A stretch of DNA of 64,000 nucleotides from Amoebophrya sp. A120 (Eukaryota; Protista; Dinoflagellata), in assembly GCA_905178155.1 (NCBI GenBank), contig CAJINV010000019.1, positions 76,237 through 140,236 on the forward strand. Reading direction: 5' to 3'. The notes beneath the pieces were generated by a model. It saw nothing but the letters and a program-made list of their open reading frames with translations. It was not told the DNA's origin and ran no database searches. How positions within the stretch are numbered: position 1 is the first letter of the stretch; each line of letters opens with the position of its first letter. The translations under genes were made by a program, and so were the position numbers. Below are positions 2,232 to 60,330 of the stretch, piece after piece.

Positions 2232-4822
2232 CTACGAGGAAATCTTCTCCAACTTTCACGTCCCCCCATCTCCCTCGGTCGCTGCCGGTGAAGCCGTATC
2301 AAATGCAAACCTGTCTGGGTTTGTCATGCTAATACATGGATGAACAGCTGCTGAATCCAGTACGCAGCCGAGCATGAGAAATTCCAGGGGTGCTGGAGTG
2401 GGTGTGCAAGCACGATCCGCATAAGAGATCGAGTATTATTTACACGAAAAACTGACAGGAGGGCTCTTCCGTCACATTACATGCATAGAATACATTTTAT
2501 TACAGACTTCTGCAGCTGCTGCATGAGCATGCAAGTGCAGCATTACAAATCCTCACGCAACCTTCCAAATCCAGGCATACTTGCAATGCATAAGCCCCTG
2601 CACCACCAGCCGCGTCTCCCGGATGGTTGCTGGCGCCATCTTCTGAAACCGATGCAGCCTCAGCCATGACTTCGTGGGTAATGTTGCCACCTGGGGTAAG
2701 TAAGTAGTTTGTTGTTCTCTTCTTCTTCATGCATGGCAAAGAAACATAAAATGTGCGATAAACTGGAACTGCATGGGTACTATCAGGGTCATGAAGAACA
2801 AAGGATCATCTCCATTTTTCTGTAATGCTTGCCTGCAAAAGGAAAAGCAAAGAGAAAGAAAAGAATAGCTCAATAATGAATGTAGCTTCAACATCTTTGA
2901 TACTTCCCTTCTTCCCTGCCTCATCCGTTCCGCCGGCCGCTACCGCTGCAGCGAAGTGGTTTTCCACGTTCGCTTCCGTTAGTGCCTGGTGAATTTCCTT
3001 TTCCTCGTCTCGCATGTCTTGTCGCGACCGGCAATACGCATAGACACACAAGTATGCATTGCAAAAGCATCTTCGCGCTTGTAGTAAATTGCACATATGC
3101 TTACAAATAATTTTTCCGAAAACAAATCATGCAGATGATTCAGGTGATACAAGATTGAAATATACTACGAGTTCGATACTCTTGCACAGGATAAGATGCT
3201 GCAGCAGCACGCGATAATTACGCCAAAAATGACCAGGTCGACGACAATAAAACCTGACAAATCATGTGAAGAAGGCGCTTTGTCCAAATTTTTTTCAAAA
3301 ATTCCGCATTTTTAAACGACAACTGCACGACGATTTATTTCACACGCTACTATAACAAAAACTAAAAGAATGAAGAGCCATGCAGGGCTTGTAATACGCT
3401 ACAGAGTCAGATTCGATTTGTGCTGAAAGTAGTAAAACGACGGAGTAATTTGATGTGAAAACAGTTCTGTACCAGCCATTGTGAAGGGGTGCTTTTCTAG
3501 CTCCTCTATGCCCTCCTCCACAGTCTCGTTCACACTTTTGTTCGCGCTCGTGTCGTGGTTCAAAGCCGCCTGTTGTGTCGCGTTATTTTGCGTCACGGTC
3601 ACGTTTTTGCCGTTTTTTGCGATGTCCAGCCGGGAAAAATGCAGCCCGCTTCGTTTTTCTTCCAGCAGAATCTGTCGCTGGTCGTTCTTGCCGCCCTCCT
3701 CGACTTGTTCCTGTTCTTCTCTTCTCACCAGCGATGACGTTAAGCTTCTACCACGTTTCGTCTCTATTTCTCCGGCCGTCGTTGCAGTGCTTGTTGTGCC
3801 GTCCTCGAAATCAACCAGGATTTCTTGTTGTTTTTCTGCAACAGCTTTGGCGGTGGAGAACTTAATATGAGTTCTATCTTTTTCATTTTCATCTTTGCTG
3901 TTCTTGCGGGAAGACGAAGAAGTACTAGAGGAGAAAGGAATACTTGAAGGACCACTGCTTGTTCTTTTACTTTTTTGTGAAAAAAATTCTTCTCTTTGTT
4001 CCTGTAGTTGCTGGTGTTCTCCTGTTGTGGCCGCGTCCCCGGCTACGACGACAGAAGATGTTGAAAGGGGAGAAGATGAAGATGCTCTTGCTTGTTTCTT
4101 GTTTTGAAATATTGACTCGGTGTTTATTGTTCTTGACGGTATTGTTTTTCCTGCTCCGCCGCCAGTGCCGAGAAGACTGTCACGATCATGCTCATCAGGA
4201 TTTATTTGCAGCCGCGGGTAGTTCTGGTGCTTCTGCTTCTCAATCATATGCCTATGCGGTCTTCGTCGCATCTTCACTTGATCTTGTTCCGGTTGCTGCA
4301 TTTTTAAGACTGCGTGCTCCTGTAGAAGTCCGGCCCCCGCGTAGAGATCTGGGTTCTTCTATCCTGAGTAAAAACGTCCCCACACCAGAGCTGTAATGCA
4401 GATTTGCAAAGACAGGAAGACTTGGAATGCGCATCCCCATGCGAGCCATTTCGAGTCGTGTTTTGGAATTTGTGATGCTGTGAACAGGATGAGTAGATGA
4501 ATCTGTGATACGGCTGCACTTGCTAACCTGCACTACACTGCAGAGCGCAACTTGTCATGCGTGACTCACAAAACTCCTAGGCTTGTGTTGCAAAATCCCC
4601 ATCCTGACTCTGGTGTGGGAACGTTTTTACTCAGGATATCTTCACTGGGTCATCTTTGTGCAGCTGCGCGGCCTCGAGAGCTTCTACTACGCAATTATTT
4701 CCGGTGCTGGAAAGAGAGGCTGCGAAATAGATGAAAATCGCAGGGTGGGCGAAGAAGCAAAAGCCACGAGGAGCGCAGGGTCGCCCGATGACCCGGGGGA
4801 CTTTTCGTAAAGTCATTTTCAT
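2232..4822 (-). CDS. Probable type-I membrane protein with S/T/E-rich ectodomain; 3' exon structure below ~2900 uncertain
   Basis: Removing element 4360 joins ORF 4631-4894 to ORF 3399-4301 (DDPVK|NPDLYAGAGLLQEHAVLKMQQPE). GT-AG intron 3254-3472 leads in frame to a TM segment FIVVDLVIFGVIIACCCSI|CVYAYCRSRQ. Confidence 0.65.
2297..2592. mobile_element. Introner family A, diverged
   Basis: tatcaaatgcaaacctgtctgggt...ccaggcatacttgcaatgcata; DR agccg/agccc. Confidence 0.8.
3053..3193. mobile_element. Introner family C, diverged
   Basis: tatgcattgcaaaagcatc...cgatactcttgcacaggata; DR degenerate acaag/agatg; removal of element plus 5 bp keeps frame. Confidence 0.75.
3254..3472 (-). other. Canonical GT-AG spliceosomal intron (predicted)
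   Basis: Minus strand g|gtacag...ttgtcag|gt; joins exons in frame. Confidence 0.6.
4360..4638. mobile_element. Introner family B
   Basis: tatcctgagtaaaaacgtccccacaccagag...ctctggtgtgggaacgtttttactcaggata; DR tcttc/tcttc. Confidence 0.92.
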
Positions 4823-6108
4823 CTTGAGCGGCCTTTCCTTCGTGTGCGGTCCAATCGATTGATAGATTTCTATTTTTCCATTGTTCATCGTCACACTTTC
4901 TTGCGATAATTGATACCGAAATTATACGATGAAATAAAACGATCGAAAAATCAAAATCGCGCAGAGCTCGGAAGACACATGGAGTTGTAGCCTTTTGCCC
5001 CCTCATCTCTCCGATCAATGTCCTTGGCGATGGAGCCACGATGCCAATCCGATTATACGAAGTGCCGAAAAAACATCATTCCACAAAACTATATCACAAG
5101 CACCTCAACGTCAACAAGAACCACATGCTTAACGCCCGTTTTCTAGACGTTGTACTCTCTTTTTTTTTTACATTTACCTGCAATAATCACAAATTTACGC
5201 TCGACTGCTGACCCTCCGACCCTCTCGCTAACGAGTGTTCTTCGATAAATGCGGAAAGCAGAGGACAAGAATTTCTTGGTAGTTTTCAAGGGTTCTTCCG
5301 CATCCTCTTTTACTTCCGACACCGCAATGATAGTTCTTTCTAATCCTCTACAATGACAATCATCGCAGTGGTTAATGTTTGATGTTCACGTCTTCTTTCC
5401 TTTGTAAGAACTACGACCATGTCGATGTCCGTGGCGGGAAAGCTTTTTTACATCATAGATGGGAACGGCAAAAAGGTACTGCTTCATACTCAAGCCGACG
5501 TCAGCTCTGAGGAAAACGAATGTAGCGCAAGCTTCTATAGACAAAAACGAATTGTCAGGCGAGCTTGAAAGCTGCTCTCGTTCTGCCTTTGGATTCCTGA
5601 ACAAGGTTATAAAATCGTCTGTACTGTATTGCATTGAGAGCTGCAAGGCATGATCTGAGGAAAAACAAAATTATGCGTGTTCGCTTCTAGGTGAGCGAGA
5701 TCATGGCATTGTCAGATCATAATTTTTGCCAAGTTTTCTGCGAGTTCGTGTCTACTGCTGAAAATAAATCCATATGAAAGCAAAAGACACAAGCATGGTA
5801 CAACGCACAGATTTCTGTACTGGTCAAAAATGTCGATCCTGATCCAAATCAGAAAACATACACTCCGTTTCGTTCCTTTCATGTGGTATAATCCCGGAAC
5901 CCGAGCGGCCCGTTGGACCGCGCCGCTGGGGCTGGGTATAAAAGCGTACTGGGCCTAGAAAACAACACCGAGGCCCAGCAACTAAAAAGATGATTAAAAG
6001 CCAGTAACACAGAAAAAACATTTTTTCATGTGAAGAAGATGAACAAAAATCTTTCAATTTGCAAGTATATATCAGAGTAGTCTCGGGTCCCACCCACGGA
6101 AGAGGCTC

Positions 6109-7361
6109 TTAGCTGCGAAGAACGACGACGTCGCAGAACCGAAACCTGGTCGCTGTCGTTGGGTCCGGGCGTGGTTCTTCGAAAATTAAAAGGGCTTTTT
6201 GTGCTTGTTTAGTGGATCTGTCTTGACTTGCGACGCCGTGAAGTTTAAGTGTCACGTGCTGGCTGGGCATATCAAATGCAAATATGTCATCTGGTTCTGG
6301 AAGATTGCAGGAGTAGGCTTGGCATGCTCTGCTAGCAGGACTCCAAAGTCTGTCATGGACGTTACCTCCCAAAAGCCTTATTCTGCAGCTGTCATTCAGA
6401 GCCGCGATTTGTTTATGGAGAATACACAACACCTAGCAAGAACTCAGAAACTTGTCATGCTGAGCCGTCACATCTGGTTGTGGCGTCCTCAGGATTCGCC
6501 AATAAGCACACCAGCATCACAAGTTTCCAGACCCAGACATATTTGCAGTGCATAGGGCAACCACGACGTCGAGAAATATGCGCGCAGGAAGTGTTCCAAG
6601 GTATCCTCTGGGCTGCTGGTGACCATACTCTCTCTATCTGAATACACCACCTGCCTCGGGAAATGCCGCGGCACGATTGTGAAGACCTCCGCATGCGAAT
6701 CTGGAAGGTTCGGATCAACCTTTTCGAGGAGGTTCTGAGCAGTCCAATCCTTCCACTCTTTGAAATCGTAATCGAATTCATGCATTAGCTTTCCGCCCCA
6801 GTCAACAAGCCGCAGTGTAGGCTGCTGCTCGGAGCATGCAGTGGGGCTACTTGAGCTGGCGCAAACGGACGACGAGCTTGGGGCGGTTTTTAGCTGCATG
6901 GCTACTGCGGGAGAACGAGGCTGACCTGCTCCTTGGTGTGCAGGAGCAGCAGGGTGAGATGATGCATCAGGCAGCATAGCTCCTGCGGGAGAAGAGCGCA
7001 GATATGGTGGGAGCACCACCTTTCTGAGAGTGTCTCTGTCACGACACCGATTTGAGTTTGGGTGCGCAGGAGCAGGAGGGTGAGACGATGTCTCAGGAGG
7101 AATAGCTCCTGCGGGAGAAGAGGGCAGATATGCTCGGCGCACAATGTTTTTTCCCACCCTGTCTCTGTCACGAAACTGATCTGTTCCTTGGTGCGCAGGA
7201 ACAGGAGAGTGAGACGATGTCTCAGGAACCGGATCTTCTCCTCCGCGCGCAGAAGACGCAGCCTGAGCCCTGCTACCTCCAGAACCGGAGGCGGCCGCGG
7301 CGTCGCAGACATGATGAACCACATACAATGTGAGGAACGACACGGCACCGGCACGCAGCAT
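6109..7361 (-). CDS. Secreted hypothetical protein (~320 aa) with internal ~42-aa repeats; one introner
   Basis: Signal-like N-terminus MLRAGAVSFLTLYVVHHVCDA; removing 6270 element plus 5 bp joins STSWLP|SQHVTLKLHG in frame. Confidence 0.75.
6270..6554. mobile_element. Introner family A
   Basis: A-type TIRs; DR gggca/gggca. Confidence 0.9.
6930..7230 (-). repeat. Coding tandem repeat, ~126-129 bp unit, ~2.5 copies
   Basis: gtgaga(t/c)gatg recurs near 6954, 7080 and 7209; peptide P(E/D)(T/A)SSHxxxPAH occurs three times. Confidence 0.75.
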
Positions 7362-8309
7362 GGTCGTTGATTGTGCGTCGACCTAATGGACAATTGGTAG
7401 ATTAAATTTATAAAGGACGAGCTCCTCCTCGTGCTTGTAGTTAGTTTAGTGGATTGGATATGTGTACGTAGTGAACTTTCGACGTTCGTTAAGTACTAGC
7501 AAAATACATAGTATTACTTAAATCGGTGACAGAGAAGATGAAATTCTTGCAAACAACTGCAAGAGTTGGTCCTAAAAGAGATCGGAGCTGCTTCCTGCGA
7601 GTTCTAATGAAAGGCACTATGATACCTAAAAATTGATGTCCTCGTCTGGGCAATGACGTTGCCATGCAAATGCCTCGCTAAAACGAGAAATAGAATTGAA
7701 AGGGATCACAACAAATTTGAGCACACACGATGGTGATTTGATGAAAATCACGTAGATCAACAATAATGTATTTTTTTGTTGTCACCGATAATTCTAATAA
7801 ATTGTGCGATCGAATGGCCTTGCTGTAAGTATGTGTTGAACTGGATCCGACGCTGGGGATGCAAGGAGATCAGGAAACTTTGATGCTGGACCGAGTTTTT
7901 TCCTTGCATTTTTTTTGATCATCGACTCCAGGGCCGAGGGGGCCGAAAGCTGCAGTTTCATTTTTGATCCGCGACACACGATGCGTGTGATCTTTATCAA
8001 GACTCATAACCTCAACAGTTGGTAAAGAAGAGCCGAAGCCTGACCTTGCGGCGCCTCTCCAGAGAATTATCAACACGTGTGCTGCCTTTCTTAATCTTCA
8101 ATGCACTGCATCGTCTCGTCAGAAGCTAGAAGAACTGACGCTTCGAGGCGTCGCAGTTATTTGATGTTCCTGTTCTCGGAACTGTAGCAGCTATAAAAAG
8201 GTCATTTCAACATCAACACTCAGGATCAACAGCAGGAGCACCGCAAGAGGGGCACGTAACCGTAAGTTCTATGTGATCATGTGAACTACGACTTCTCGTG
8301 TCCTCTACT

Positions 8310-11300
8310 TCACGGCTTCACCCCCATCCAAAAGTTCGCGCCCAGAATGTTCGAGACGTAGTCTGTATGCATTGCAAATATGTACTGCGCGTCTGAAAAT
8401 TTTTTGCAAGATTTGTAATGCGAAAGTGCGAGCACTGCTCGTTCTCACACAGAATACGCAACACAGGGAATGGAAAAAACTTGTCATGCCTACCTGCTAA
8501 TGTTGCAGTCTGTTCATCATTTGCAGTAGCATCACAAGTTCTTCAAATTCCAGACCCACGCATATTCGCAATGGATAGTCCGTGGTGGGTTGGGTGGTTT
8601 GCCCCACCGCCGCGAGGACGATGTTCTTGGATTCCATCATTTGCACAAAGTTCCGCTTCTCAAAGTTCAGTTTCCTCAGTTCTCATCCTGAGTAAAAACG
8701 TCCCTACCGCAGAGTTGTCATGCAAATCCAAATGCGCAATAACAGGAACATTTGTAATGCGCAGCTCCATGAAAGGTATTTCCAGTCGTGTTTTGGAATT
8801 TGTAATGCTGTCAACCGGATGAGAAAATGGCTGTCTCGTGCGGCTTCCGTTGCCAACCAGCACTACACTGCAGAGGGAGACTTGTCATGCACAGCTCGCA
8901 AAGCTTGGAGATTTGTGTTGCTAGATTCCCAACTTGACTATGAGGTGGGGACGTTTTTACACGGGATAGCTCTGACTCTTTCATCATCCAAAATTTGAAC
9001 AGCTTCTCTCGCTCCTTGTTCAAGTCGATCTGCAGGGTTATGCACCGCAAATATTTCTGGGTCTGGAAGAATGCAAGTTTGTCTTGCTCGGCTAGCATGA
9101 CTGCCAAGTCTGTCACTCACGTTACCCAAAAGCACCAATTTTCTGTCATGCAAAACAAAAGTTTGTCATGCTCAATAGACAGTGCCTAGCTCTACTCAGA
9201 CACTTGTCATGCTGAGCCGTCATTTGTGGCGTCCTCGTGATTCCTCGCCAGTCAGTATCACAAGTTTCCAGACCCAGATGACGTGTTTGCATGTGATAAG
9301 TGTCCTCAAGTTCTGCAGCCGCTCCTGTCTCAGATGCCGTTGGTGCATGCTGAAGCCCAGCGTCTCGTCATCTTCCAGCAGCTTCAGGACCTGCTGCTCC
9401 GGTTCCGACCGGTCTTCCGCTCCGCCGCGCTCCAGTCTGACAACTTCCTCGTCTATCAGGTCGAGCTTCAAAATCAACCGTGAGTATAGGCTATGCATTG
9501 CAAAAGTATAATCGCACTAGTAGTAACTCTAACTCCTGCACATACAAATTCGTCTGCATGAGAAATCGAATTTGGTGCAATACGGATTTACCTTAAGAAA
9601 AGAAAATGCAAAAGATTTGCAAAAATGCATGTACTGCAATTTTTACCACGAGTACGATACTTTTGCACTTTTGCATACAGGCCCTCGAGCTCCGTCAGGT
9701 CCGAGAGTAGCGCCGACTATGAAATGCAGAAGTGTCTGGGTCTGGAAACTTGTGATGCTAAAATGTGCATGATGAAAACCCTTCCGAATGCAGTCCGGCA
9801 TGACAACTTCCCAAAACGCTTTCGCATAGGCAATCCGCATGAGAAACTGCGTTTTTGCATGACAAAAGAGCCTGCTGCTTTTGTTGGTTATGCAATACAG
9901 AGTATCTAGGAATGGAATGCTAGCATTACAAGTTCCAACCTTCGTCCAGACCCAGACATTTTTACAATCCATACCGACTGGTGCTCCTCGATATCGGACA
10001 GCAGCCCGGTTCGCTTCCTGTCTCTGATTCTCAACTTGTAAAATCTGTCCAGCAGCTCATCTGTCTCCGCTTTTCTGTATCCTATGGAAAAACGCCCCCA
10101 CCCCATAGTTGTCATGCAAATTTGCATGCGGAAAATGTTTCTCATGCGGAGACACATGGGAAGCATTTCCTAATCGCGTTTTGGAATTTGAAATGCTCCA
10201 AGTCCAATCAGCGTCATAGGCTAGATTTGTGATGCTGCTGGACGACGTAAAGAGCATTACATTACAAGCCCAAATTTGTCATGCGCAACAGCCCAAGCTC
10301 GTTGATTTGTCTAGCAGATTCCGCATCTTGACTATGGGGTGGGGATGTTTTTACTCAGGATATCCTCCGAATGGAATTCACGGTGTTCAGCGCCCGCATC
10401 ATGTCAATGCCTTGTCTTCTCCCCGCCATTATCAAATGCAAATATGTCTGGGTCTGGAAAGATGCAACTTGTCATGCGCATTTTAGATCATGAAAAAATC
10501 TGTCATGCACTGGGAGCAAAAGCAGCCCTTTTTCTGGTCTCCGAAAGAAGGGATTTCTCATGCGGATTAGGCATTGAGAAACCTCCTGCTCAAAACCTGT
10601 GTTGCTGGGGCTTGCATGCCAGACCTTCTGTGTGACGCAGACTCTGCATCACAATCTTCCAGACCCAGACATTTTTGCATTTGATAGCCATCTCGAGCCT
10701 TTCCTCCTCGGTGCGCACCTGGCCCCAGCAGACGTCCGGCGACGGGGCGTTCTGCTTCGTTTTCCCGAACTTCTTTTCGTACCGGTGGTCGGGCTGGTAG
10801 AACCCGCCCCGCGCTAGGGACGCGGCGGAAAAGTCCATGTCGTCCTCTCTCGGGTCTTGGAACTGCGCATATCCTCATCAAGAACGTCCCCACACCAGAG
10901 TTAAGATGGGAAATCTGCTAGACAAATCGACTAGCTTTGGTTGTTTGGCATGACAAGTTTTTGTCCGCGGAGTGTAAAAATCCTGTTTCGCTAGTTCAGA
11001 AGCATCGCAGATCTAGCTTAGCATGCTGATTCTAGCATTGCAAATTCCAAAACACGAGTAGAAAATGCTTCTCATTGAGCTCCGCATGAGAAACTTTTTT
11101 GGCATGCAGAATTGCATGACAACTATGGGGTGGGGACGTTTTTGCATATGATAGCGCAATCGAGGGGTTTATCCCCGCCGAGGCCTGCATCACCCCGCCC
11201 AACAGCTGCATATCCTGAGTAAAAACGTCCCCACCCCAGAGTTGTCATGCAGATTTGCAAAGACAGGAAGACTTGTAATGCGCATCCCCATGAAAGCCAT

Positions 11301-14300
11301 TTCCCATCGTGTTTTGGAATTTGTGACTCTGCAAAGAGGATGAGGAGATGGCTTTGTGATGCGGCTGTCCTTGCGAAACTGGACTACAATATAGAGGGGA
11401 ACTTGTCATGCCTGACTCCCAAAACTTCCGGATTTGTGTTGCAGATTTCCCATCTTGACTATGGGGTGGGGACATTTTTCCTCACAATACTGCACCCCCT
11501 GGACCTTGTCTTGGTCCACGTTTTTCAAAAGTGTCCGGCTGTAAATCCCACCTCCCTCCACGAAGCGGGCCTCTCGCTGGATCATGACCCGTTCGTTCAG
11601 CGTTTTCTGCGATTGCACCACGGCGGCCAAGGGGGTGGTCGACTCCGTCCGCATCGCGTTTTGCAGGTCCAAAATCCGGCTCAACACCTCCGCCTTTCGC
11701 CGCAAGAGCCGGAGCTCGCCCGCGGCCCGGGCGCGCTGCTCCTCGGTCACGTATGGAGCCGTCAGGTTTGAAATCGACAAAGTTGAAATGATTTGCCATG
11801 CATAAAATGGATGCCAGTTGTAACCCAGTTTCCAACTGGCGCATGACAAATTGGGGTAGAGCCGAGATGCAGTTTGTCATGCTGTTTCGGCAAAGAAGAC
11901 TGCTCTTGTCATGCTATTTCAGCAGCTCAGTTGCTACCCCTCAACAGGCTTACAATCTGCCTCACTTGCCTACTCTGCAAGGCAGGCACTTTGTGGGCTG
12001 TATTTTTTGCATAACAAACTATTTCAACTCTGACTATTTCAATCCTGACACATCCATATCACGTAGCGTTCCAGAATGAACTCCTGGTCTGAGGTGAAGT
12101 CGAAAGGTTTGTACAGGACTGACGGCTCCACCACGGTGTTGTGCAGCGCGATATCAACTGCAAATATGTCTGGGTCTGGAAACTTGTAATGTTGCGCTGG
12201 GAATAGTGAATCAATGCTCTGTAATGCACAGCCAAGCATGAGAAATGTCTGCGCTTCTTTATTGTGTTGCGTGTTTCGCATCACAGACTGCGTTTTTGCA
12301 TGACAGGCAAAAGGGAAAAGGGTCTCTTCTTTGACACGCATCACAAACTTTTTGGTCATGCCAGACAAGCATGACAAATCTCGCAATCTTCCAGACCCAG
12401 ACATTTTTGCATTTGATATGCGACGTACCGGAGCAACTCGCTGAGGTCACTGGACCCCCGCTCGAGCAGGTGCACCTTCCGTATGGCGTTCTCAAACGTT
12501 ACATTCTCAACTGTTACATGAATTTGTGATGCAAGAGCCGCAACAGTCAAAGGTGAAAGCTTGCTGCTTTCGCATCACAGATTTGGCACGGATTTAGATG
12601 CTGTTTAGCCCTTCGGAAATGTGTCATGCCAAACAGCTTGATCATCTACCGGCTCAAGGTAGTTTTGCATGACAAATTCATGTAACAGTCGAGAATGTAA
12701 GTAACGTTTGAGAACGCCATATTCCGCTGGCACCGCTGTCGCGCTTCCGACGCGTTCAAAAATTGGTGTCTGCGGAAGGACAAGTTCGCATTCGGCGGGT
12801 TGGCCCGGGTCGTCAGCATCTCCTCGTACGAAATTTCCGCCGGCGTGAACTTGCCGCCGTGCTCCTCCTTGTGCGCCTTCGGAGGAAAATTGTGCGGATC
12901 GATGTACGTCGACGCCGGGTAGGAATGGAGTTCTTCGGAGTGGAGCAGGATCTGCAAATCCGACTCCTGCACGGTTGCGGCGGCCAGTTCCATCTCCGTC
13001 TCGACCAGGTTGTCACTGACCATCACCTGCAGGGTCAAGACCCGGCAGCGCTCCTGCACCGAGCGCCAGTAGTCGTGCACGCCGCGGGCAAACTTGAGGA
13101 CCGCGAGCCTCTCCGTCTCCGTCAAGTCCATCACGTCCTCCTTTTCCCCCGAGAACAAAATCTGGTGGAGGAAGATATCCAAGAAAAAAACTGTGTAAGT
13201 GTAAGTCTGTGATGCAGGAAGCGCTAAACTGCATACACTTGTCATGCTAGAGGTGCGTCATAGGCCACTTTCATAGGTGTTTCCACGTACTAGCTGCGCA
13301 TGACAGGTTTTCCCTGTAATGCAAAGCGAATTTGTGATGATGATCTTCCTACAAATTCACACTTACACAGTTTTTTTCCTGGATAGAAGAGCCCAACGGA
13401 CGACTCTTCTTGAATGATGCCCTCCCGCTTCAGCCCGAACGTTTTTTGCACGCTGGTCGCGAGGTAGGGGTCGAGTTTTTCGTCCACCCGCCGCAGCTCA
13501 TCCCGGAGGACCAGACGCTCGTGGTTGAAGCTTCCAAACTTCTGCTTGGCGTCCCGCAGCAATTTGTCGAGGTCTTCCCGGACCAAATCGAGGGTAAAAG
13601 CCGGCCGCTCCAGTGGCCAGTCGGGGTGGTCCCGCAAGTCTCGCAGATTGAACACCGGGGTGTAACTGGTCGACACCATCTGCATCTTCCCGGACTTCTG
13701 CCGTCCTCTGGGGAGAAAGGCAGAGGGAATGCGTGTCATCACGGAGTTGCCCGGACCCATGTCGAATGCGGCACCGGGTGATGCATCCGGTGCAAAAAGG
13801 AAACTCTGCGCTCCGCTATTTCTTGCAGATCCCGATGTGGAGGAAGAGGATTTGTTTCTACTGCCACCGTCTGCCGCCATAATTCCTCCGGACTTCACCT
13901 GCCCCCGGGAGGAGGAGGAGGAGGCGGGCATATTCATTCTCGTGCTGCTACTCTTGTTCCTGATGTTGGTAAGTGGTATATCCAGTGCGGGTTGCAGTGA
14001 CAACTCCAATTCCGCGATGGTCTTTTTCCTTCCATTCCTATCTCCCTGTCGTGGTCCCGGCACAGCACCACCTTTATTTTTCACGCTCCTACTCAAGGAC
14101 GTCGGAGCGGCAGAAGGTACAATTTCCGCTGTGAAAGGCGGGTTCTTCAAATCGTGCCATAGCTGCGTTGCCACTTCCGCGGCCGACTCTGTTTTTCGCA
14201 GTGGCGGAGAAGATGCAACTAGAGGTTCTGACGCCGGACTTGCTCCTGATGTTGCGGTAACTTCTCCGGTTGAAAATGCCGTTGACGGCCGTCCGGGGCG

Positions 14301-49063: not shown

Positions 49064-51202
49064 AATGGTGGTCTAATGTGAAATTAACTAATAAAAAGTT
49101 TGATTTTAACCATTACTACAGTGCCGTCAGTGGCGTCTGTGCGAGATAAAATGAATATTATGAATGCCGCTTCTAGAACGAGAAAGCTAGCTACTGGAGC
49201 GAGTTACGAAAAGTTGTGGTCGTGTACTACTGCTAGACAGCGCGCCATCTAGCCACGGCTTTCCATGTTTAAGTCTGCCTGACAATGGTGATCGTATGCT
49301 GTAGCAGTAGATCTAGAATGTAGGATTTTCATACCATTGTCCATTGAAAGTTCGGCTACTTACACCACGGTCCGATCGACTTCCAACGACGGTATAGGGA
49401 TCTAGTATCCACCTCATTCTGGAGCACCCCGAAGCCACAACTCTTTCGGATGATCGTTTGTGGCTCTACAACTTTTTGTGAACCAAAGACCGAGATGAAG
49501 ATGATCTTCCATAGCTATTTTTTGTAGTTTTATTCCCGGGCCCGAAATTGTTGGTATTTAAGCAGAGCGCCGCATACCCGACCCACTTCTTCCATATCTG
49601 ATTCATTGATTTGTCATTCCTGCTGGATTAGGCAGTGGATGCAGCTCCGACCGAATGATAGATCAGGTAGTTGCCGAAAACATGTGTGATGCACCGATAC
49701 TCATCGTGCATAATCGAGAGGAGATTCTTTGCTGTAGCAAGGAGGAAGGACTTTCTCATGCATCTTCCTGTACGCGGCTGATCGCCCGGCATACCTCACA
49801 GATGAATTGATTTTTAAACATCAGCTGCAAGCGGCAACCGGAATGCGTTTTCATGCACAATTTCATTGTTTCCTGTGTTTCTCTTTCTTTCAAGAGGCAT
49901 TTCGATTTCCGGGGTTCTCAAAATTGATACAAAGAGTGTGTGAAACAATGTGTCATGAAGATCGATGTGGATGTGTAATCTGGGTTATTTCAATTTTATT
50001 CATTTTGATTTATGTAGACTCACGGTTCGTAAAAAAGCATTTTTTCCGTCGGATCGCTCAATGCACCGGTTTCCGGCCCGAGCCTATGTCCATCATACAA
50101 ATATCAGTTCGACTAGTTTGTACAGGTGACACAGATGTTGTAATATTATATTGGTATTTTTGCGTATTGCATTTGCAATTGCAGTGGTGTAAAAATGCAT
50201 TTGACTTTCTACGAATTTTGGCGCATGAAGTCTTTCGATGATGCGTAGCTCTCAAGTGTGCTTCTTGTAAGTAATATAATGACATCCAGATTGTAAAATG
50301 ATTTTCAAAAATTCAACGGAGCACCAGCGGCCCTTTGGCTGCTTGGCAGCATGATATTTTTCACGACGTTGCCTCCGGATAAAGTGCAGTGCGGGTCCGA
50401 GAAGCACGAGAGGCTGCAGCAACGCTGCTCTATCCTCATCAAATCCTGTTCGCTTCGCGACCACCACCGCTCCCACCCAGGCACTTTCAATATTGTCCTC
50501 GTCCGTGGAAAAAAAACCGGTATCGGGATTACATTACTTGAGCTTCATCTTTGGAAGTCTAAGTGTGTAAAATTTTGTTTATCATCAATCTATTAAAAAG
50601 TTGTCAGCAGCTTCTATGTTAGCGGATTTAGTAGACCTGACACGAGGCCTTCTGAAAAAAATCAGTCTCCAATAGATATCGGCATGGCTTTTGAAAAGTT
50701 GTTAAAACACGAAGGAAAACACAAACTGTAAAATGATAATTGGTTTAGCTAAAAATGTTAAAAGTTGAACCTAAGTAGTTGCATAATTTCGTAAACTTAT
50801 CAATCTTGACTTTGTTCGAGTCTTCGTCCCTGGAATCGTTTCTTGTCTGTTTGTTTGTTTGTAGACATGCGGCAAGGTGGAAACGCGTCTACTCACCTTT
50901 TTTTCCCTAGCGCTACTTCAATAAAAACCCCTTTACGCAAAGATGCTTGAGAAAATCCTTAGGGGCTGCTACCGGTAGTGTACGACTTGCTTTAAAAATA
51001 ATTATACGGCCTGCTGGAAAGTGGTACTTTTATAAAGCGCCAAACTCCGTTGTAAATCTGTTGCGAATTTCCGTTGAAAAAAGGCTACTTCTTGGACCAC
51101 TTCTACCTTGCTTAGGAAGATCACGACACTTTGATCGTTCTGCTTTTGTTTTTCTTTTTAGCTCACTGTAAAGTTTTTAGATCGCCATAAGCTTCCAAGT
51201 AA

Positions 51203-51230
51203 AGTTCTCAACTAACAGTTCTCAACTAAC
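51203..51230. repeat. 14-bp tandem repeat x2 at retrotransposon 3' end
   Basis: agttctcaactaac agttctcaactaac, ~25 bp beyond the ORF stop. Confidence 0.7.
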
Positions 51231-51255
51231 ATAGACCGGAGCCTTTTGCAGAGCA

Positions 51256-52800
51256 TCACTCTTCAACCGCGCTGCGGCCTCGTCCATCGGACCACCACTG
51301 GTGCCGTATTGCCGGGAAGGGGCCGGCGAGTGGTGCGAGGGCGTCGTTGGCATCCACTAGGGCCCTCGCGACTTGGTTCGGTTTGTCGCGGCACTCCTCC
51401 ATGTGCCCGAGGTCCCAGGAGCGGAAGAATGACTGCGTGATCGGGCACTCATGCACGAAATGCGCCGTAGTCGCTTTCCCCTGCCCACATAGGGCACAGT
51501 CGAGGTCTTCTCCACTCGGCTGCGCCGCCAACAACCCAAAGCGCAGGGCGTAATACATGGTCTGGCCAACGCGGCCGCCGGCGTCGGTCACCAGATCACG
51601 CCCCCAGCCCCCTGTTTCCTGGAGCGTTTGCGCTGTTTTGCTCTTTGTCTTTTCGTCCCGTTGCCGTTCGGCCAGGTTCCGGCGGGCTTCGTTCCGCACG
51701 TAGCGGCGGGCCCCCGTCTTGAACTGCTTGCGCGTGATCGGTTCGCCCTCTTCCTGCAGGTCGCTGCGGTTGGCGTACCCCGCGAGGTGGTCGGCGACCA
51801 CGTTCCCCGCGATGCCGGAGTGCCCTGGCACATACCGGACGACCAGCTTGGCGCAGCTTTTCAGCGCGTCCGCTGCAGCCGTGTAGACCTCGGCGCCCAG
51901 GTCGTCCCGCAGTCTCGGATTGAGCAACGCCCGCACGTTGGACTGGCTGTCCGTGCAGATCGTCACCTGCTCGCTTTTCAGCGCGTGGCGTGCCACCGCT
52001 CGGAAGGCTGCGATGAGCGCCATGCGTTCGGTTTCGTACGAATCCGTGTGGAGCCCGATGGGCCACGCCGCCCCACACTGGATGCCGAACCCATGCAGAA
52101 AGACGCCACAAGACCCGGCAAAGTCTTTGACCGACCCGTCACAATACAGCACCAGGCTGGACTCCCGAAGGGTGTCCACCAGCGCCGGCGTGCCTTCGTT
52201 TTGCCACGTCGCCTGGAAGCGGCCCTGTTCCTCTGCTTCGTGGAGGACGGACCACCCGCGTCCTGCTCTTGCGCCGATCTCGGGGAGAACGGACGAAACC
52301 GCGACGTTAGAGTCGTCGATCACTTGCAAGCCGGTTTCTAGCCAGTCCACGCTCGAGGTGTTCGCTACCTCCCTCAAAGCGTCCCCGGGCGGTCGTGAGA
52401 AAGCACGGGCCGTGAGCGCCGTACTTTCCACCTGGTAGAGCTCCGGGAGCGACAAAAGGCCGGCCGCCATGAGTGCGCAGGCGCGGTTCACCTGTCTAAA
52501 CTTCGGAAAGCCCAGCACTTCTTTGGCCCCCTCCAGCTGGAAACTGTTCAGGGCGGCCGCCTCTTTCGCCCCGAGCCCGCTCCAGTATGTTGCTAGCCCA
52601 TACGTGAGGACGCTTTCGCAGAATAACTGGTAAAAAGCCCGGACGGACTTCGACCCGGCGCCCAACGCTCGCGATAGGATGCGCACTGCCGCCATTCGCT
52701 TGGTGAGGATTTCGGATATGACTTCAAAGTGCCGACAGAGTGTCAGCTTGCGATCAAACCACACACCGAGGAAGCGCGGGTGGGGGTCGTAGACGAGCTT
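51256..52800 (-). CDS. Retrotransposon RT thumb, RNase H and zinc knuckle segment
   Basis: FLGVWFDRKLT, YCDGS, ETERMAL, ICTDSQS, YVPGHSGIAGNVVADHLA, CALC..HFVHEC. Confidence 0.85.
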   Translation of the reverse strand, partial: KLVYDPHPRFLGVWFDRKLTLCRHFEVISEILTKRMAAVRILSRALGAGSKSVRAFYQLFCESVLTYGLATYWSGLGAKEAAALNSFQLEGAKEVLGFPKFRQVNRACALMAAGLLSLPELYQVESTALTARAFSRPPGDALREVANTSSVDWLETGLQVIDDSNVAVSSVLPEIGARAGRGWSVLHEAEEQGRFQATWQNEGTPALVDTLRESSLVLYCDGSVKDFAGSCGVFLHGFGIQCGAAWPIGLHTDSYETERMALIAAFRAVARHALKSEQVTICTDSQSNVRALLNPRLRDDLGAEVYTAAADALKSCAKLVVRYVPGHSGIAGNVVADHLAGYANRSDLQEEGEPITRKQFKTGARRYVRNEARRNLAERQRDEKTKSKTAQTLQETGGWGRDLVTDAGGRVGQTMYYALRFGLLAAQPSGEDLDCALCGQGKATTAHFVHECPITQSFFRSWDLGHMEECRDKPNQVARALVDANDALAPLAGPFPAIRHQWWSDGRGRSAVEE

Positions 52801-53910
52801 TTCCCACCCCGTCGTGGTGCAAGGCGAGTTCATCCAAGTCGCACGCAAACTCGTTCTGGAAGACGATATACGAGCACTTCCCGGGAGCAAGCTGCATATT
52901 GCTTCGGCTGCAGAAGTCGGCGACCACGTCCAGGGCGGCCTGGAGTAGTTTCTGCGCCTCCCCTGTCTCCCCGGACCCGTGCTCTAGCGTGAGCGCCAAG
53001 TCGTCCACGTACGCGAGGACTTGCACTCGTGGGCACTTCTTCTGCAGCTCTCGGAGCAGAATGTCGGCGAAACTGCACCAGACCAGCGGGCCGAGGCACG
53101 TGCCTTGCGGGACCCCCTGGCGCAGCGGGACGGCCTGGGAGATCTCGTCGCTGAACCTCACCACTCGGCGGCGGTTGGTGACGAAGGAGCAGATCCACCG
53201 CGTGAGCAGCAGGAGCTCCTGTTTTCGTGCCGGGTCTTTAAACTCGTGCCGCCGCTCCAGTAGTCCGCTGAGGAACAGCGGCGGGCAAACACGCTCGAAG
53301 GCCGAACTCAAGTCCAGGAAGCACGTCGCCCTCCGGCGATTCTTGCGCAGGGTGTCGGAGGCCAGGGCCCCCAGCGTTGCCGTGTGGTCCGTCGCGCTTC
53401 TTGCGGGTGTGTCCCCGTACTGGTTCTTGCTGTACAGCGGGGCGCCCTCCGCCTGGAAGGTTAGCCGCAGGCGCCGCAGCACTGTGCGTTCCCAGGCTTT
53501 CCCCAAGCACGACGTCAGGGCCACCGGCCGGAGGGATTTGGGTAGGTCCGCGGCACGGCCGGGCTTTGGTACTGGTACGCAGACTTCCAGCCGCATGACC
53601 TCCGGCGTCACGCCTTCGGTGACCCCTTGCTCGAAGGTTGCGCGCAAGAGCTGCTTGCCCTGTTGCGGGAGGTTTTTCAGCAGCACCCCGTGGATGCTGT
53701 CTGGCCCGGGAGCCCCGCCCGGCTTTTGGCCCCGTAGAGCGAACTCCACGTCATCCAGCTCCAAGCGCAGCGCTGTGCTCGGCGCTAGCTCTTCCGCTAG
53801 TGTGTGCTGGTATTGGTCCCAGGCCACTCGCTCTGCCCCGGGGTCCAACACCGGGTGGGACCCGTAGAAATGCGCCAAGACACACGCGAGCTTTTTGAAC
53901 ACCAGCTTCC
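52800..53910 (-). CDS. Retrotransposon reverse transcriptase segment
   Basis: APGPDSI, LRPVALTSCLGKAWER, FLDLSSAFERV, GVPQGTCLGP, YVDD. Confidence 0.9.
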
Positions 53911-56547
53911 CGGCGTATCGCAGCGCTGTGGTCTGCTGCTTCGGCGGCGGCCGCCCTTGTAGTTCCCACCCGCAAAAGCCGGAAGGCCCCGCTGGTTGTC
54001 TGCTCCGCTTGCTCGAGCTTTTGCCCGAACTCGTCGTCCCTCCTGCTGGCCTCGGCGTTTGCTACACGCGCCGTCGCGCGCCGTAACGCGGTGCGCCAGT
54101 ACAGTCGCTCCGCCGGCGGTGCGAAGGCCACGCGCTTGATGCACTCTCCCCGCTCTTTCAGTGCAAGGCCTAGCTCCGTGCCTGTTTGCCACCGCGGCTG
54201 CCTGTGTCTCTTTCTCGTTCTCGTGACATTGCTGCGCGGGATAGACCTGTGCGCGGCGGCTTGTATCGCAGCGCGGATGTGTGCGAACTTGTCCTCGACC
54301 GACGGTGGTGCCGGGTGGTCCCGGAGAAAGGTGCGCATCTCTGCGCGGTACAAGTCCCAGTCCGCCCGATTGAAGTTCAAGCGCGTGCGCCTCTTCGTTG
54401 TGGGGAGTGGTTCCTGCCACAAGTCCGGGCTCCACGGAGCTACCGTTGGGTCCGCCGGGAGGGCCACTACCGCCCCGGGGGCCGGCGCAGGTGGCGTTTT
54501 TGTGCTTGGTGTCGGGACCGGTGTGGGGCCGCCAAATGAAGGAACTATCGGCGCCAGCCCGGAGACTGCGGCAACTAGCAACCCCAGCCCCGGCAAGACC
54601 GGCAGTCGCTTCTCCCCTGTGTTGCTCTGCGCGTCCGCGCTGTGCTTGTTCGCGCGCTGGGCCCGAAGGCGCTCGAACTTCTCCTTGCGGAGAACCTTCT
54701 TTTGCCTCCCGGTGAGATTTACTTTCCCACCACCTCCTGCTGCTCCCTGTGTTTCGAAACTGGCGTCCTGTGTGCCCCGGAGGCCTTGGTTGGCCTTCTG
54801 CCCCGAGCCGGTAGCGCGGCCTCGTCCCGCCCCTCCTCCCCCGGCGTCGTCTTTTGCTGTGTTGCTGGCGGTGAAGTTCTGCTTCCCCGGACGCTGATCG
54901 GCACGTGGCTCGACCAAGTCGAAGACCAGGGCCGCATGGTCTCCGCCGACGAGGCACACTGCTGGCCCCTGCGGCTGTAGTTCGGCAGCCCGCGCGAGTA
55001 GTCTTCCGGTCAGCAAGACTACGTCCGGCGAGGTCTTCGACGCAGGCCGGGTCGGCAGCGGGGTGGTGTAGAACTCCAGCGCCTGCGCAGTTGCCCAGGT
55101 CTTCACCTGGGTCGCCCGTGGCTCCTGTGTGTGGTTCGCGTCCCAGGAAATTGCAATCTCCCTGCCCGGGGGCATGTTGATTGCCGGTAGGGTGGGAATT
55201 CCCGGAGGGGTGTAGACGTTCGCGCTTACGCCCCACTCCTTGCCCGTGTCGAGGTTGAACAGGGTGGCGCAGGTGGAGGCAACGTTCTTCCCGCCCTCCG
55301 CGACAATGCGGAAGTCCGGGTCTGACTTCACGACTCCCACTCGCCCCTCTCGGACGATGCTGGCAGCCCCTCCCCCGCTGCCTTCGGTCTCACAGACTTC
55401 AAGAACCTCCCAGCCCGGTACGTGGCGCTGGAGAAATTCGCGGAGGAAGTCTTCGCCGCACCAGGTTTCCTGGAGGTGGCACAAGTCCACCTCGTGCTCC
55501 TCGAGCAGCTGGCTCAACGCCGCCCCTTTCACAGAGGCCGCCGCTTCGTCGCTTTGGTTGAGCGACTGGCAGTTCCACTGCGCGACCCGCACCGCCCCTT
55601 GCACGACTGGGTGCTTCGCCCCATACTGCTCTTCCTCCGCTTTTGCTGCGCCCTTGGCCGGCCCGACTACGTGGCGCGTGTAGTACTTGACCTCCTTCCC
55701 CCGGCTACACTCGGGCAAGAGGAAGGTCGTGCACTTCTTGTGTGCCTTTGCGATGTGCTCGCTGAAACCCTGGACCCTACCCGCATACCCGCGGTTGTAT
55801 GGGCAGTGCGAGCAGTAGTAGCGCCGCGCTGCTGCAGCTTGTTTTAGCGTATCCCCCAGGCCAACCACAACGCAGGACTCGGCATTCTGGTAGTTTGGGA
55901 GGTCCTGGACGGACACAACGCCTTCGACCGCAGGCGCAGCTTCTTCCTGGTCTTCGTCCCCGTCGGGGCCAGCACTGGCGCGCCCTGTGCTGCTGCAGCT
56001 ATTCCCGCCCGCCTGCAGGCGGTTGGGTTGTTCCGCTTGTAGTGCAGGTGCTGCCAGGGCATTGGAAACGTTGTCGCCCAGGCCGGGCGGCTGGCGTAGA
56101 GCCTTCTTTTGCTCTGTTGTCGGATGCGCCGCTGCGAGCATTGCTCTGGTTCCGGAGTTGGAGATGTGCTGTGCGGCTCCCTCCTGTGCAGGTCCGCTTG
56201 CGACCTGTGTCCCGGCAACCTGCTCCAGACCAGGAGGTGTCTGTTGTGGCTGGACCTCCTGCTCCTGCTGGACCCGCGGGAGAGCAGGCTCTCTCGCTGC
56301 TGTTGTGCTGCTCACCTGAACCTGATGCATCGCCGGTACTGTTTCGTCATTTGCAGGAGGGGGAGGGGGGCCCAGCTGGATTTGTGTTGTCGCGCCGCCT
56401 AGTGCTTGTCGGCTGCTGTGTGCAGGGTGCAAGTCGTGCTGCATCGCCAGAACTTGGCGTGGGGCGGGGGTGTTTCCGTGGGCCTGTAGGCACGTGCGCT
56501 GTATCGGAGCAGCCACTGTGACTTCGGCGCCCCATCTTGTCTGTCAT
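53910..56547 (-). CDS. Retrotransposon N-terminal segment: Q/P-rich region, C2H2 finger, AP-type endonuclease
   Basis: VAQWNCQSL, HLQETW, NVYTPP, WDANH, SPDVVL, GDHAALV, LNFNRADW. Confidence 0.85.
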
Positions 56548-56639
56548 TTTAGACAGAGTATCATATTACTTTCTTCTACTTCTACTTCTTTGTTTATTCC
56601 CTTCTGAAATAACTAGAGTTTCCGCCCCTTCCCATCCGC

Positions 56640-59600
56640 TCAAATTTGCAGAAGCGCATCGCTCCCGTTTGCTGCCTCAACTCGCCCCCTCCAACTCCGC
56701 CCCTTGCAAGACTGCTGGAGGATTTTTCGGGTCAGGTATGCAGTGCAAAAAAACATCGTATTAAATGCAAGAGAAAACTGCATGACAAATCGCTTCCTGA
56801 AGCTAAATCAGTATCACAAGTGCGATTTTTCCATTTGCAGAAATCTGTCATGCGATTGTTGACCTACGAGTAGCACGACACATTTGCGATGCATATCAAG
56901 AAGATGATGGCGAAAGTGAAGAGGAGGATGATCCCGACCGTTGTCGCGGAACAGAATTCCATGAATTCCGCGTCTTGTTGCAGTTCCGGTTTATTGTCCC
57001 CGCTCTCCCGGATGAGATGACTCTTCGCACTGTTCATTCCCTGCGCCTGCTCGTTCTCCGAGGACCACCTCCCGTAGTTGAGCAGGAAATTCAGGTACGA
57101 TTGCGAAGTAGAGTCGGTCGCCGCAGAGGAAGTGGAGAGACTGCGAGTGTTTCCATCTTCACCATCTTCTTCAGCAAGAGCTGCTACATCCCCTACTTCA
57201 TTCGTCTCGGGGAAGTTGTTGTGTCCGCCCTGCTCCTCATCAGTTTGAGTTTCGACGATTCTGCTTTGTTTGAGGTTTTCGCCCTCGGATAGTTGTAGTT
57301 TTTGCGCCAGCTGCAAGTGTGGTGGTTCTTCTTCTTCTTTTCCCGCCTGCTCCTCAACATTGTCGTGTTCTTTTTTCTCTGATTCTTCGCCGAAGAAAAT
57401 TCGGTTGAAAAACGAAACCAGTTTCTGGTTAAACCGCGGACCACTTTTGCGTTGAAGGTGGTTCAAGTTCGACTTTGAAGACGTGGTCGACGTCGCTTGT
57501 TGTTGATCCAGGTCAGCTTTGTCGTCATTTACAGACTTATCAGCATCTTCATTTAAGACATCGGTTTCCCTTTCCTCGTCGACATCTTCCATGGACCCCG
57601 TCGCCGCGTACTGGGGGTTGCTGTACCCGCCCCGGAGATTTGAGGTTTTCTTAACAGCTGATGTTCTACTTCTTCTGGAAGCACCAGTGTTGACATGATC
57701 AACATCTGAGGATGAGGAAGACGTAGTTTCTATCTTTCTTGCCGAGGAGCTACTAGCCGCTCCTGCTGTGCTGGTGCTGGTTGCGGGAATTCCTGCACCA
57801 CTGGATGGAGTTGTAGATGAGGGCTTTGTTGTACTCTGCGCCACGTCGGAAGTAGATGCAGCTCCTGGTGAGCTGCTACCCGCTTGTTCATCGTCTACTT
57901 CGACGTGTTTTTCCGATGTCGCGGCACCCTTTGTAGGCGAAGAAGAAGATGAAACCGCGGCCGTACCACTGCTCTGTAGTTTCCGAGCAGCTTTACCTTG
58001 AGAAAGTCGTGCAGAAGTTGTAGTTGTTTTTGTGACGTCTTTCTTTTGGAGTTGCGTCTGATCCTGCTGCTGCTCGTCACCCTCCAACTGTAGGAATGCG
58101 GAGGAAAACGCAGTGGCTTCTGGGTCGAGGTCGTCCACATCATCTGCCTTTTTGTGATGATGATGATGATGGTGGTCGTGATGCTTGGCTGATTGTGGTT
58201 TTTCGGCAGGAGCATCCTCCTCGTCATCTACCTCTTCGTCCTTAGCCGCCGACGACGGCGCCTTCGCTTCTTTTTCATTCCCCGCGGCTGTACTAGCAGA
58301 TTTGCTTGTAGTTTTCGGTGCGGCAGCGGCAGAAGGACCAGCACCTCCTTTCGTTCGACCTTGGGTTTTTGTCTATCCTGTGGAAAAGTATCGCCCTCGT
58401 GCTAATGTAATACGGCGGATATCTTTGCATGACAGATCTGATTTTCTATTTCTAGTACCCGGGTTAGCATTGGAAGTATCATTTTCGATTCTGCAAAAAT
58501 TTGTAATCTGCAGTTGCTAGTACGTGTAGTACCACCAGTACGATAAGTATCGACGAGACTTTTCAACACTGCATATTTCCCCGCCCTTGCTGCCACCACC
58601 TTGCACATCTACCGTCGTCTTCGTTTGCGCAACAGGAGGCGTTGGTGCGCCGGCCGTCGCAGTCTGGCTGGCAGGAGGCAAAGTGGGCACGGAGAGGTCC
58701 ATTCCCGGTACCAGGCCGCTGACGACGTTCTTGCCACCAGCCTTGCTCCGCTGCGTGGAAATTTCCGGAATCTTTCCCGCGAGAAGATCCCGACCGGCTG
58801 GCGTTTCTCCCAGCACGGAGGGCGGCTCCTTTTCCACATCGTCGTGCCATTTTTTCTCCCGGTGTTTCGCAGTCGCCTTTTTGTGTTCTTTCTTCTTTTT
58901 AGCCGCTGCGCCTTCGCTGCTCTCGTCCTCGCTACTGCCGGTTGCTTTCTTCTTTTTCTTGTTCCTACTACGGGCGGCCTATCCTCTGCAAAAGTATCGT
59001 ACTCGTAGTGGCTGCTGCAGCTACTCCTGCATTACAGATTTCATGCTCTGTCTACCACAATCGCCAGCATTACAAATTCAATGCTTCAACTTGGGAAATA
59101 AATTTGTGATGCAATTTTGAATAGTAGCACGATGCTTTTGCATTGCATAGGGCTGCGACCAGTCCCAATCCCGTTGCTCCTGCTGCAACGCCGCCCGCGG
59201 CTACAAGTCCGGCCTGCAGCTTCTGATTCTTTTGGATCTCTTCTTGCAGCTCGTCGTATGAGAGTGCACAACTCTCCATCCTCCTTATTTGTCATGCAAA
59301 ACTACACCAAATCCAGTTGCTGCCTTGTAGCATTGTTTGCATGACAAACTCCGGAAGCCCAAGCAGTACTACACTAGGGACATAAATTTGTCATGCATCG
59401 GCTCCACGTGTGCTGGTGTTTGTATTGCTGTTCATGCCATGCAAATGAGGGGGAGGGGGAGTTCTGCATTGTCATAGGTTGTACAGCGTGTTGCCGTCAA
59501 GCTCGTGTTGCTATCGAATGCAAATGTGTCTGGGTCTGGAAACTTGTGATGCTGAGCCCCCCTTGGCTGAGCCTGTTCCAAGAGCCACCAAGCATGACAA

Positions 59601-60330
59601 GTTTTCGTCGAGCTTTCTTACTTTTATACGTAGCAAGCATAAGCATTACACGTGGCGTTTTTGCATGACAAAAAAGGCACAACTTGTGCTGGTCATGCAA
59701 TACAGACTTGGCACTCATGCAAGACAAGCAGCAGAACTTCCTCCTTTCCAGACCCAGACGTATTTGCAATGCATAGTTGCAAGTCTTCAATCTTCTGGTC
59801 GTCCCGGGCGTTCTCTGCTTCGGCGTTATCAGTTGCTGTTTTGGCTGCTTCTTTGGCCTTTTCGAGCTGCCTCCGCAACTGTTCGATAGTATTCTGGTCC
59901 TCATTGTGTTGTGTCTTGAGATCGTTCTTGTCACCTTGTATCCAAGAAAAAAATTGTGTAGGAAGAGCAGCGTCACAAATTTCGTTCTGCATCTACAGAA
60001 AACACCTGTCATGCGCAGCTAGTAGTGTACGTGAAAGCACGCATCAAGCGTCGGGTGGCTATGAACATGCAGCTTCGGCACGACATTGTCGTGCCGAAGC
60101 TGCTTCTTCTTCTTCCTCTACACTTGTCACAAGTGTAGCGGTTTTGCATTTTCTACATCTTTGCAAACTTACACTTACACAGTTTTTTTCTTGCACATCT
60201 TCCAGGTCGCTGATTTTGGCGTCGTCCGCTGCATCGTCTTCTCGGGCCTCCGCGGCGTCGGCATTAGCCTTCGTTAGTGCCGCCTGGTCCGTCTTATCCA
60301 GTTGCGCAAATCCAACGGACGTTGCTCAGG
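56640..60330 (-). CDS. Membrane-anchored low-complexity protein (coiled-coil N-terminal part, S/T/E-rich region, C-terminal TM); 6 introners; true start upstream and unresolved
   Basis: In-frame joins ISDLE|DDKND, EDLQ|HELDG, LYN|QLQEE, LVAA|PRSRN, KGGE|KTQG and IIFL|TRKILQ; stop at 56640-56642. Confidence 0.7.
56737..56895. mobile_element. Introner family C, diverged
   Basis: tatgcagtgcaaaaaaacatcgta...cacatttgcgatgcata; DR tcagg/tcaag (synonymous Leu TTG/CTG). Confidence 0.82.
58374..58575. mobile_element. Introner family C, decayed
   Basis: tatcctgtggaaaagtatcg...cgagacttttcaacactgcata; DR ttgtc/tttcc; frame restored. Confidence 0.75.
58980..59149. mobile_element. Introner family C, diverged
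   Basis: tatcctctgcaaaagtatcg...cgatgcttttgcattgcata; DR cggcc/gggct; frame restored. Confidence 0.82.
59257..59476. mobile_element. Introner, B-like, decayed
   Basis: tatgagagtgcacaactctcc...gggagttctgcattgtcata; internal ttgtcatgc/gcatgacaa; DR cgtcg/ggttg; frame restored. Confidence 0.7.
59512..59775. mobile_element. Introner family A
   Basis: A-type TIRs; DR gttgc/gttgc. Confidence 0.9.
59939..60197. mobile_element. Introner family E (inverted relative to 13176; right end ACA)
   Basis: tatccaagaaaaaattgtgtagg...cacttacacagtttttttcttgcaca; DR ccttg/tcttc; frame restored. Confidence 0.8.

Follow-up and report, generated by a model that had tools for sequence, protein, structure and literature searches.

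The 64,000-nucleotide stretch of the dinoflagellate Amoebophrya sp. A120 analyzed here (NCBI GenBank assembly GCA_905178155.1, contig CAJINV010000019.1, positions 76,237 to 140,236 of the forward strand; hereafter the window) carries short, non-coding elements whose ends are inverted repeats and which are flanked by 5-nt direct repeats; they are located in exons either way round. We consider it rather probable that a DNA transposase inserts the elements and that they are then removed from the pre-mRNA by machinery that reads the predicted hairpin of their paired ends and cuts at a fixed offset from it. The element system as such is already published, and the accessible portions of that account describe non-canonical introns, hairpins, an undetected U1 and an unknown removal mechanism (Farhat et al., 2021; PMC7789003). 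The unbiased orientation, the lack of polar signals and the retention of the upstream repeat copy described below are modest additions. Published work is cited throughout from the accessible portions of each source.

Element anatomy and orientation

Elements were detected by an open scan of the 64-kb window for inverted ends with flanking direct repeats, followed by profile extension. This yielded 63 elements of 128-376 nt across 117..63347 (minus strand), amounting to 23.6% of the window. The elements start with TAT and finish with ATA, with an imperfect inverted repeat reaching ~25-30 nt inward, and a 5-nt direct repeat flanks them on the outer side (exact in 344 of 449 elements); this repeat was required at detection, the open scan beforehand having already given 5 for TAT-ended elements. 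Position counts show inverted ends of TAT, seven nucleotides and AAA, for which detection had partly selected. TAT/ATA and an A-run at positions 11-13 are conserved among elements with unrelated interiors, and stem positions 4-7 are often mismatched. Three elements with uncertain ends (59286, 60821, and 62327) were excluded from the end statistics, and element 59939 has one degenerate end and two repeat mismatches. The terminal inverted repeats (TIRs), target-site duplication (TSD), short length and multi-copy families are those of miniature inverted-repeat transposable elements (MITEs) or other non-autonomous TIR transposons.

The preliminary description had named six pairs of elements as homologous in opposite orientation, and all six score far higher opposite than same way round, and far above shuffles, when interiors trimmed by 32 nt per end are aligned (shuffle mean 19, maximum 35 of 300). 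All lie in minus-strand hosts. In family A, 10430..10686 (group minus) and 40101..40352 score 203 opposite vs. 36 same, and in each the sense strand folds the ends together (z -7.98 and -5.96, respectively); a second A pair, 12152..12418 (group plus) and 28568..28819 (group minus), gives 103 vs. 49. The family B pair reaches 260 vs. 29 and consists of 4360..4638 (group minus; TCTTC repeat on both sides; within a 412-codon minus-strand frame after removal) and 34448..34725, which lies within a frame of 2645 codons. For family C, 29119..29267 (group minus) and 33956..34100 (group plus) score 126 vs. 41, for family D 12482..12721 (group plus) and 38179..38414 (group minus) 172 vs. 60, and for family E 13176..13385 and 59939..60197, the latter with the degenerate end, 86 vs. 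25; a contig piece from run X2 begins at 13386. Across the window, 46 of the 63 elements could be assigned to five families with no inconsistent edge among 163, and their orientations are mixed in every one (A 12:7, B 4:4, C 8:5, D 2:2, E 1:1; pooled 27:19, p 0.30). Two family C copies (31192-31342 and 3053-3193) have an interior orientation at odds with their own end types, which suggests end exchange or inversion between inverted repeats.

A pattern scan of the public assembly JACKZZ01 recovered identical TAT...ATA ends and the same families, and the loci examined there share no exons with the window. Of 387 unique elements, 214 received a strand call, the remainder being dropped for a low coding score (140), short flank (24) or ambiguity (9), and the calls are concordant within 41 of 42 multi-element loci. 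A family could be given to 192 of these elements; the sense strand carries the reference sequence in 93 and the complementary one in 99 (p 0.72). The per-family count that had been proposed as a check turns up no biased family there. The 140 elements of loci L001-L164 that stand without clear coding context may be untranslated, intergenic, or beside undetected introns.

Host reading frames after removal

When each element is deleted together with 5 nt (L+5, where L is the element length), minus-strand frames of 2645 codons (27916..40479, crossing 22 elements) and 930 codons (8310..14495, crossing 13 elements) are obtained. All ten named elements come to lie in an open minus-strand frame, in line with the earlier claim that one rule restores the frame throughout. 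With L+3, 4, 6, or 7 removed, these two frames drop to around 620 and 400 codons. Since L+2 and L+8 likewise keep the long frames open, the exact element+5 rule rests on contig joints and not on the frame. The codon model favors the minus strand at 58 of 63 elements, which limits the host-strand claim. In JACKZZ01, a partly circular test gives an open frame over 250 nt after L+5 removal in 83/85 and 72/78 elements of the two orientations that have enough flank, against 45-48 after removal of L+3, 4, 6, or 7.

Probable removal from RNA and the retained repeat copy

Contigs from sequencing runs X1-X3 skip three minus-strand GT-AG introns, namely 20726..20939, 16114..16288, and 18566..18763. The first of these serves as a control for strand and spliced RNA, with the joint 20723-20938 appearing in X1-X3 and not in the DNA-like run X4. 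Because they skip the three GT-AG introns, while X4 does not show the joint of the first, the X1-X3 contigs behave as spliced transcripts. Among the joints listed, skips of exactly element+5 occur at no fewer than 6 of the 24 elements in 27800-46400, and contig pieces give at least 3 of the 22 elements in 8100-27200, with pieces ending at the repeat for four more. These nine or more measured skips cover both orientations of families A and C, all on minus-strand hosts. In family A, 16780..17072 (group plus; 298 = 293+5 nt skipped, pieces ending at 16774 and resuming at 17073 in X1-X3) stands opposite to 28246..28513 (273 nt skipped), 28568..28819 (257 = 252+5 nt; joint 28561-28819 in X1 and X2), and 45889..46171 (288 nt), all of group minus. 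In family C, 28926..29074 and 44221..44348 (group plus) stand opposite to 30519..30673 (group minus; 160 nt skipped). A single X4 contig, 13640-22011, runs unbroken and at even depth through five elements, including 16780..17072. One 3135-nt contig has the length expected with all 13 elements of the 930-codon gene gone, as a matter of bookkeeping only, and runs X7 and X8, taken as raw reads, yielded 8 and 2 partial reads, respectively.

Where the two copies of the repeat differ, the letter of the copy upstream in the sense direction is kept in 6/6 informative junctions, for which the chance is 0.029 under a uniform register. These junctions, again on the minus strand, come from both orientation groups, with 15580 and 18190 assigned only weakly. 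They comprise the family C elements 28926..29074 (imperfect repeat; sense position 4 kept; joint 28920-29075, both=1) and 44221..44348 (position 1; joint 44215-44349, both=4), the divergent A-like elements 15580..15915 (positions 2 and 3) and 18190..18491 (positions 1 and 3), and the family A elements 21094..21388 (group plus; position 3; piece ending at 21088) and 25848..26112 (group minus; position 1; piece starting at 26112). As the upstream copy is kept, removal follows transcription and not element orientation, which fits RNA processing and argues against symmetric DNA excision. With a fixed register, the 5' cut would likely be made at TAT or one base ahead of it, and the 3' cut 4-5 nt after ATA. 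The junctions bound the register at no less than 4 (one junction) or 3 (three junctions), with no clear purine bias at the first exon base, and codon scoring of which copy is exonic (43:30, p 0.18) does not separate register 4 from 5.

Splice signals, motifs and folding

Junctions of the GT-AG type are possible at any register in only 17 of 271 elements (9 on the antisense strand), and 145 of the 271 offer no AG at any register. No 4-6-mer proved strand-polar after correction in 12 scans of these 271 elements; the search for strand-specific motifs had been proposed as a check on two-way function, and it returned no sense-strand signal that would speak against it. With no orientation bias, no sense-specific motif and no usable GT/AG, whatever is recognized must be carried by both strands. 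To this extent the earlier proposal of recognition through symmetric ends stands, whereas its branch invoking paired ends in duplex DNA does not, since the elements are present in the DNA-like contig and skipped in the RNA-like ones, and the choice of the repeat copy that is kept goes with the direction of transcription.

Two candidate signals were tried and rejected. A hidden AG acceptor formed by ATA plus G is not general (G follows ATA in 19/60 and 54/214 elements), and a fixed branch A at -7, prompted by three canonical introns, was found in 14 of 53 noisy predicted introns. In 27 of the 271 elements a G flanks both sides, giving GTAT...ATAG (16 on the antisense strand; for example a predicted intron in L057). 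Such elements could undergo GT-AG splicing with one extra codon left, and may be related to the repeat-bearing canonical introns that have been described from A120. Families that are otherwise unalignable share an internal motif, GCAT[GTC]A[CG]A, with 14.4 copies per kb inside elements and 0.23 outside; it occurs on both strands in 204 of 271 elements and is a candidate transposase-binding or splicing signal. Canonical intron 20726-20939 also contains motif copies, together with a stretch that by eye resembles a decayed family C end.

Folding predictions join the two ends in 99/99 and 90/93 elements of the two orientations (189/192). The fold check thus predicts a hairpin in both orientations, but it does not show selection on RNA pairing, as an excess of G-U pairs was not replicated. 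In the window, G-U outnumbers A-C in terminal pairs by 43:18 in 60 elements (28:9 per element, p 0.003, with five window sizes tried). Folding energy does not differ significantly between sense and antisense strands for the whole element or the terminal part (p 0.085 and 0.055, respectively). Interiors show no transcription-linked mutation bias (108:102), which is therefore not the source of the G-U excess in the window.

How the elements may be removed

Under the reading that we favor, a transposase would insert without regard to gene direction and make a 5-bp duplication, and either RNA strand would fold into the same terminal stem, beginning UAU/AUA. Cuts would be made at or one base before the 5' end of the stem and 4-5 nt beyond its 3' end; the mRNA would retain the upstream repeat copy and so recover the coding sequence as it was before insertion. 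We lean toward such a structure-guided ruler, akin to that of Euglena nonconventional introns, over ordinary splice-site reading, with the enzyme being only putative. More tentatively, and somewhat doubtfully at present, this may amount to a second, non-spliceosomal route of intron removal that needs no junction sequence and positions its cuts relative to where the hairpin of a transposon ends. Such a ruler would cut at the first U of the stem and 4-5 nt past its last A, would erase from the mRNA any TAT...ATA transposon with a 5-bp duplication in either orientation, and would represent convergence on the geometry of the Euglena introns. We infer the hairpin rather than observe it, because the G-U excess failed to replicate and inverted repeats fold regardless.

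Several points weigh against the favored reading. Runs X1-X3 are one sample, represented by contigs only and taken as RNA by guess, X4 may be the source of the window itself, and 28568 is the sole named element of ten with a joint among those listed. The JACKZZ01 frame test is partly circular in that its strand calls used the L+5 sequence. The G-U wobble was rejected as evidence of pairing after 214 other elements gave 111:96 (69:59 elements, p 0.43), and the frequent mismatches at stem positions 4-7 also count against a stem that is read as such. Two observations hint at a polar reading of sequence: a slight sense excess of possible G[TCA]..AG junctions (35/271 vs. 20 antisense, p 0.058), and an invariant first U (274/274) against a last A present in 266/274 (p 0.008, post hoc). 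Of 73 repeat mismatches, 43 lie at third codon positions, which is above one third (p 9e-6) and not above the ceiling of one-half for one free copy (p 0.16), and a sliding register would give this excess as well.

We regard it as rather unlikely that the elements are removed by a U1-less, modified U2 spliceosome that reads sequence in the inverted ends, with the hairpin helping at most. Its signals would be a 5'-terminal UAU, a U-rich stretch close to the 3' end and perhaps the shared GCAUGACA motif as a branch region, and the symmetry of the ends would provide them in either orientation. The preliminary description had set the polarity of spliceosomal introns beside the two-way occurrence as if the two were at odds, but this step is flawed, as inverted ends present either strand with identical 5' and 3' sequences. 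Because inverted ends supply terminal signals to both strands, and given the precedent of Polarella, two-way function cannot alone exclude a spliceosome. A120 retains nearly all spliceosomal proteins and U2, U4, U5, and U6, with U1 undetected (PMC7789003), canonical introns occur in the same genes, the first U is invariant, and transposon-derived non-canonical introns of Fritillaria appear to be spliceosome-excised (PMC11282704). The GCAUGACA motif is present on the sense strand in 232 of 271 elements, at a median of 51 nt from the 3' end; however, it is missing from that strand in 39, and its distance varies from about 30 to 210 nt. Likewise, a spliceosome would have to manage without an AG in 145 of 271 elements, at a 3' junction that is arbitrary target sequence, and the fixed branch A is unsupported.

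It is less probable still that both ends are bound by a protein with sequence specificity, perhaps a transposase domain that has been domesticated, either on the RNA or on the DNA while it is transcribed, and that this protein brings in an activity that cuts and joins RNA, the pairing being incidental. This would suit the conservation of TAT/ATA and the A-run over unrelated interiors and often mismatched positions 4-7, the concentration of one internal motif within elements and the unreplicated wobble signal, although the needs of transposition alone predict the same end conservation. Excision from DNA by end pairing before transcription, as for the internal eliminated sequences of ciliates, is the least credible of these explanations and very improbable. 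Inverted ends and target duplication are features of DNA transposons, contigs lose rare variants, and the joint evidence covers the listed joints only. Against this, the DNA-like run keeps elements at even depth with five in one X4 contig, so that the ciliate-type absence from expressed DNA is not seen there; the runs that skip elements skip GT-AG introns too, and the kept repeat copy follows transcription in 6/6 cases.

Other features of the window

The other minus-strand elements start at 117, 528, 881, 2297, 3053, 6270, 8366, 8684, 9039, 9492, 9718, 10078, 10870, 11211, 11752, 21579, 21988, 25605, 26707, 28026, 29309, 29628, 29935, 30984, 31192, 32885, 34151, 34775, 35689, 36079, 37792, 39773, 56737, 58374, 58980, 59286, 59512, 60821, 61953, 62327, and 63035. 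A GC-rich retroelement of non-LTR type occupies 51256-56543 (minus strand) in three frames, with matches to RVT_1 (E 1.2e-23) and RNase_H (E 1.6e-10) and a weak Exo_endo_phos match below the cut-off (E 0.0025); no TAT...ATA element was found within it. Two GC-rich intergenic islands, ~22750-24600 and 41700-42900, are free of elements, and X4 covers 22751-24024 evenly. Six host frames in 40483-49072 and 56867-58372 gave no Pfam match at E 0.01, in a scan that left the 2645- and 930-codon genes outside, and the viral contigs compared gave 0 matches.

Relation to known systems and significance

The elements agree with the introners published for A120 in their TAT, seven looser bases and AAA ends, non-canonical junctions, length of about 240 nt, co-oriented gene blocks and accompanying canonical introns, with direct repeats of 3-5 nt there and 5 here (PMC7789003). 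Removal from RNA at non-canonical junctions is likewise seen here, insofar as the runs guessed to be RNA are so. In its accessible portions, the published account gives gene orientation only, treats splice position relative to the hairpin as variable or unknown, and reports no transposase in A120 (Farhat et al., 2021; PMC7789003), whereas element orientation is counted here and all six informative junctions retain the upstream copy of the repeat. A120 introners have been assigned to several transposon types (PMC12130899), and such elements are described as confined to part of the genus (PMC12005148). In the accessible literature we found nothing on how Amoebophrya elements are oriented or in which register they are removed; figures S19-S25 of Farhat et al. 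may bear on the register.

The introners of Polarella glacialis and Aureococcus are also TIR/TSD elements that make introns either way round and restore the coding sequence, but their splice sites are GT/GC/GA and AG, supplied by the element or its duplication, and a strand bias is reported (bioRxiv 2020.10.14.339549). Here, introns are made in both orientations in the window, JACKZZ01 and the contigs, while a GT/GC/GA donor with an AG acceptor is available in 35/271 elements at best, and there is no bias. Introns of Fritillaria borealis share the TIR and TSD origin and are mostly non-GT-AG, but have preferred AG-AC/AG-AT ends from a TAC target, whereas the target is arbitrary here (PMC11282704). 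The nonconventional introns of Euglena are similar in lacking GT-AG and in their terminal pairing, flanking repeats and proposed MITE origin, and their 3' cut lies 5-6 nt beyond the paired motif, compared with a likely 4-5 nt here (PMC12501133). They follow a tested code, N3CDG...CH'GN5-6, in which CDG...CH'G sits three bases inside the 5' end, whereas the Amoebophrya elements lack this motif and carry TAT...ATA at the very end, with a terminal stem joining the ends that is predicted only. Euglena is an unrelated lineage, and circles and mutational tests are available only there, the case here being made from sequence and predicted folds (PMC12501133).

Amoebophrya has tens of thousands of non-canonical introns and no detected U1, and the accessible portions of its published account state their removal as an open question (PMC7789003). 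The unbiased orientation, the absence of a polar motif and the kept upstream copy narrow the mechanism and make this splicing question testable. If a ruler that reads structure only is at work, it would explain how transposons can fill a quarter of the window at little cost, and Amoebophrya would provide a second eukaryotic case of structure-defined mRNA introns.

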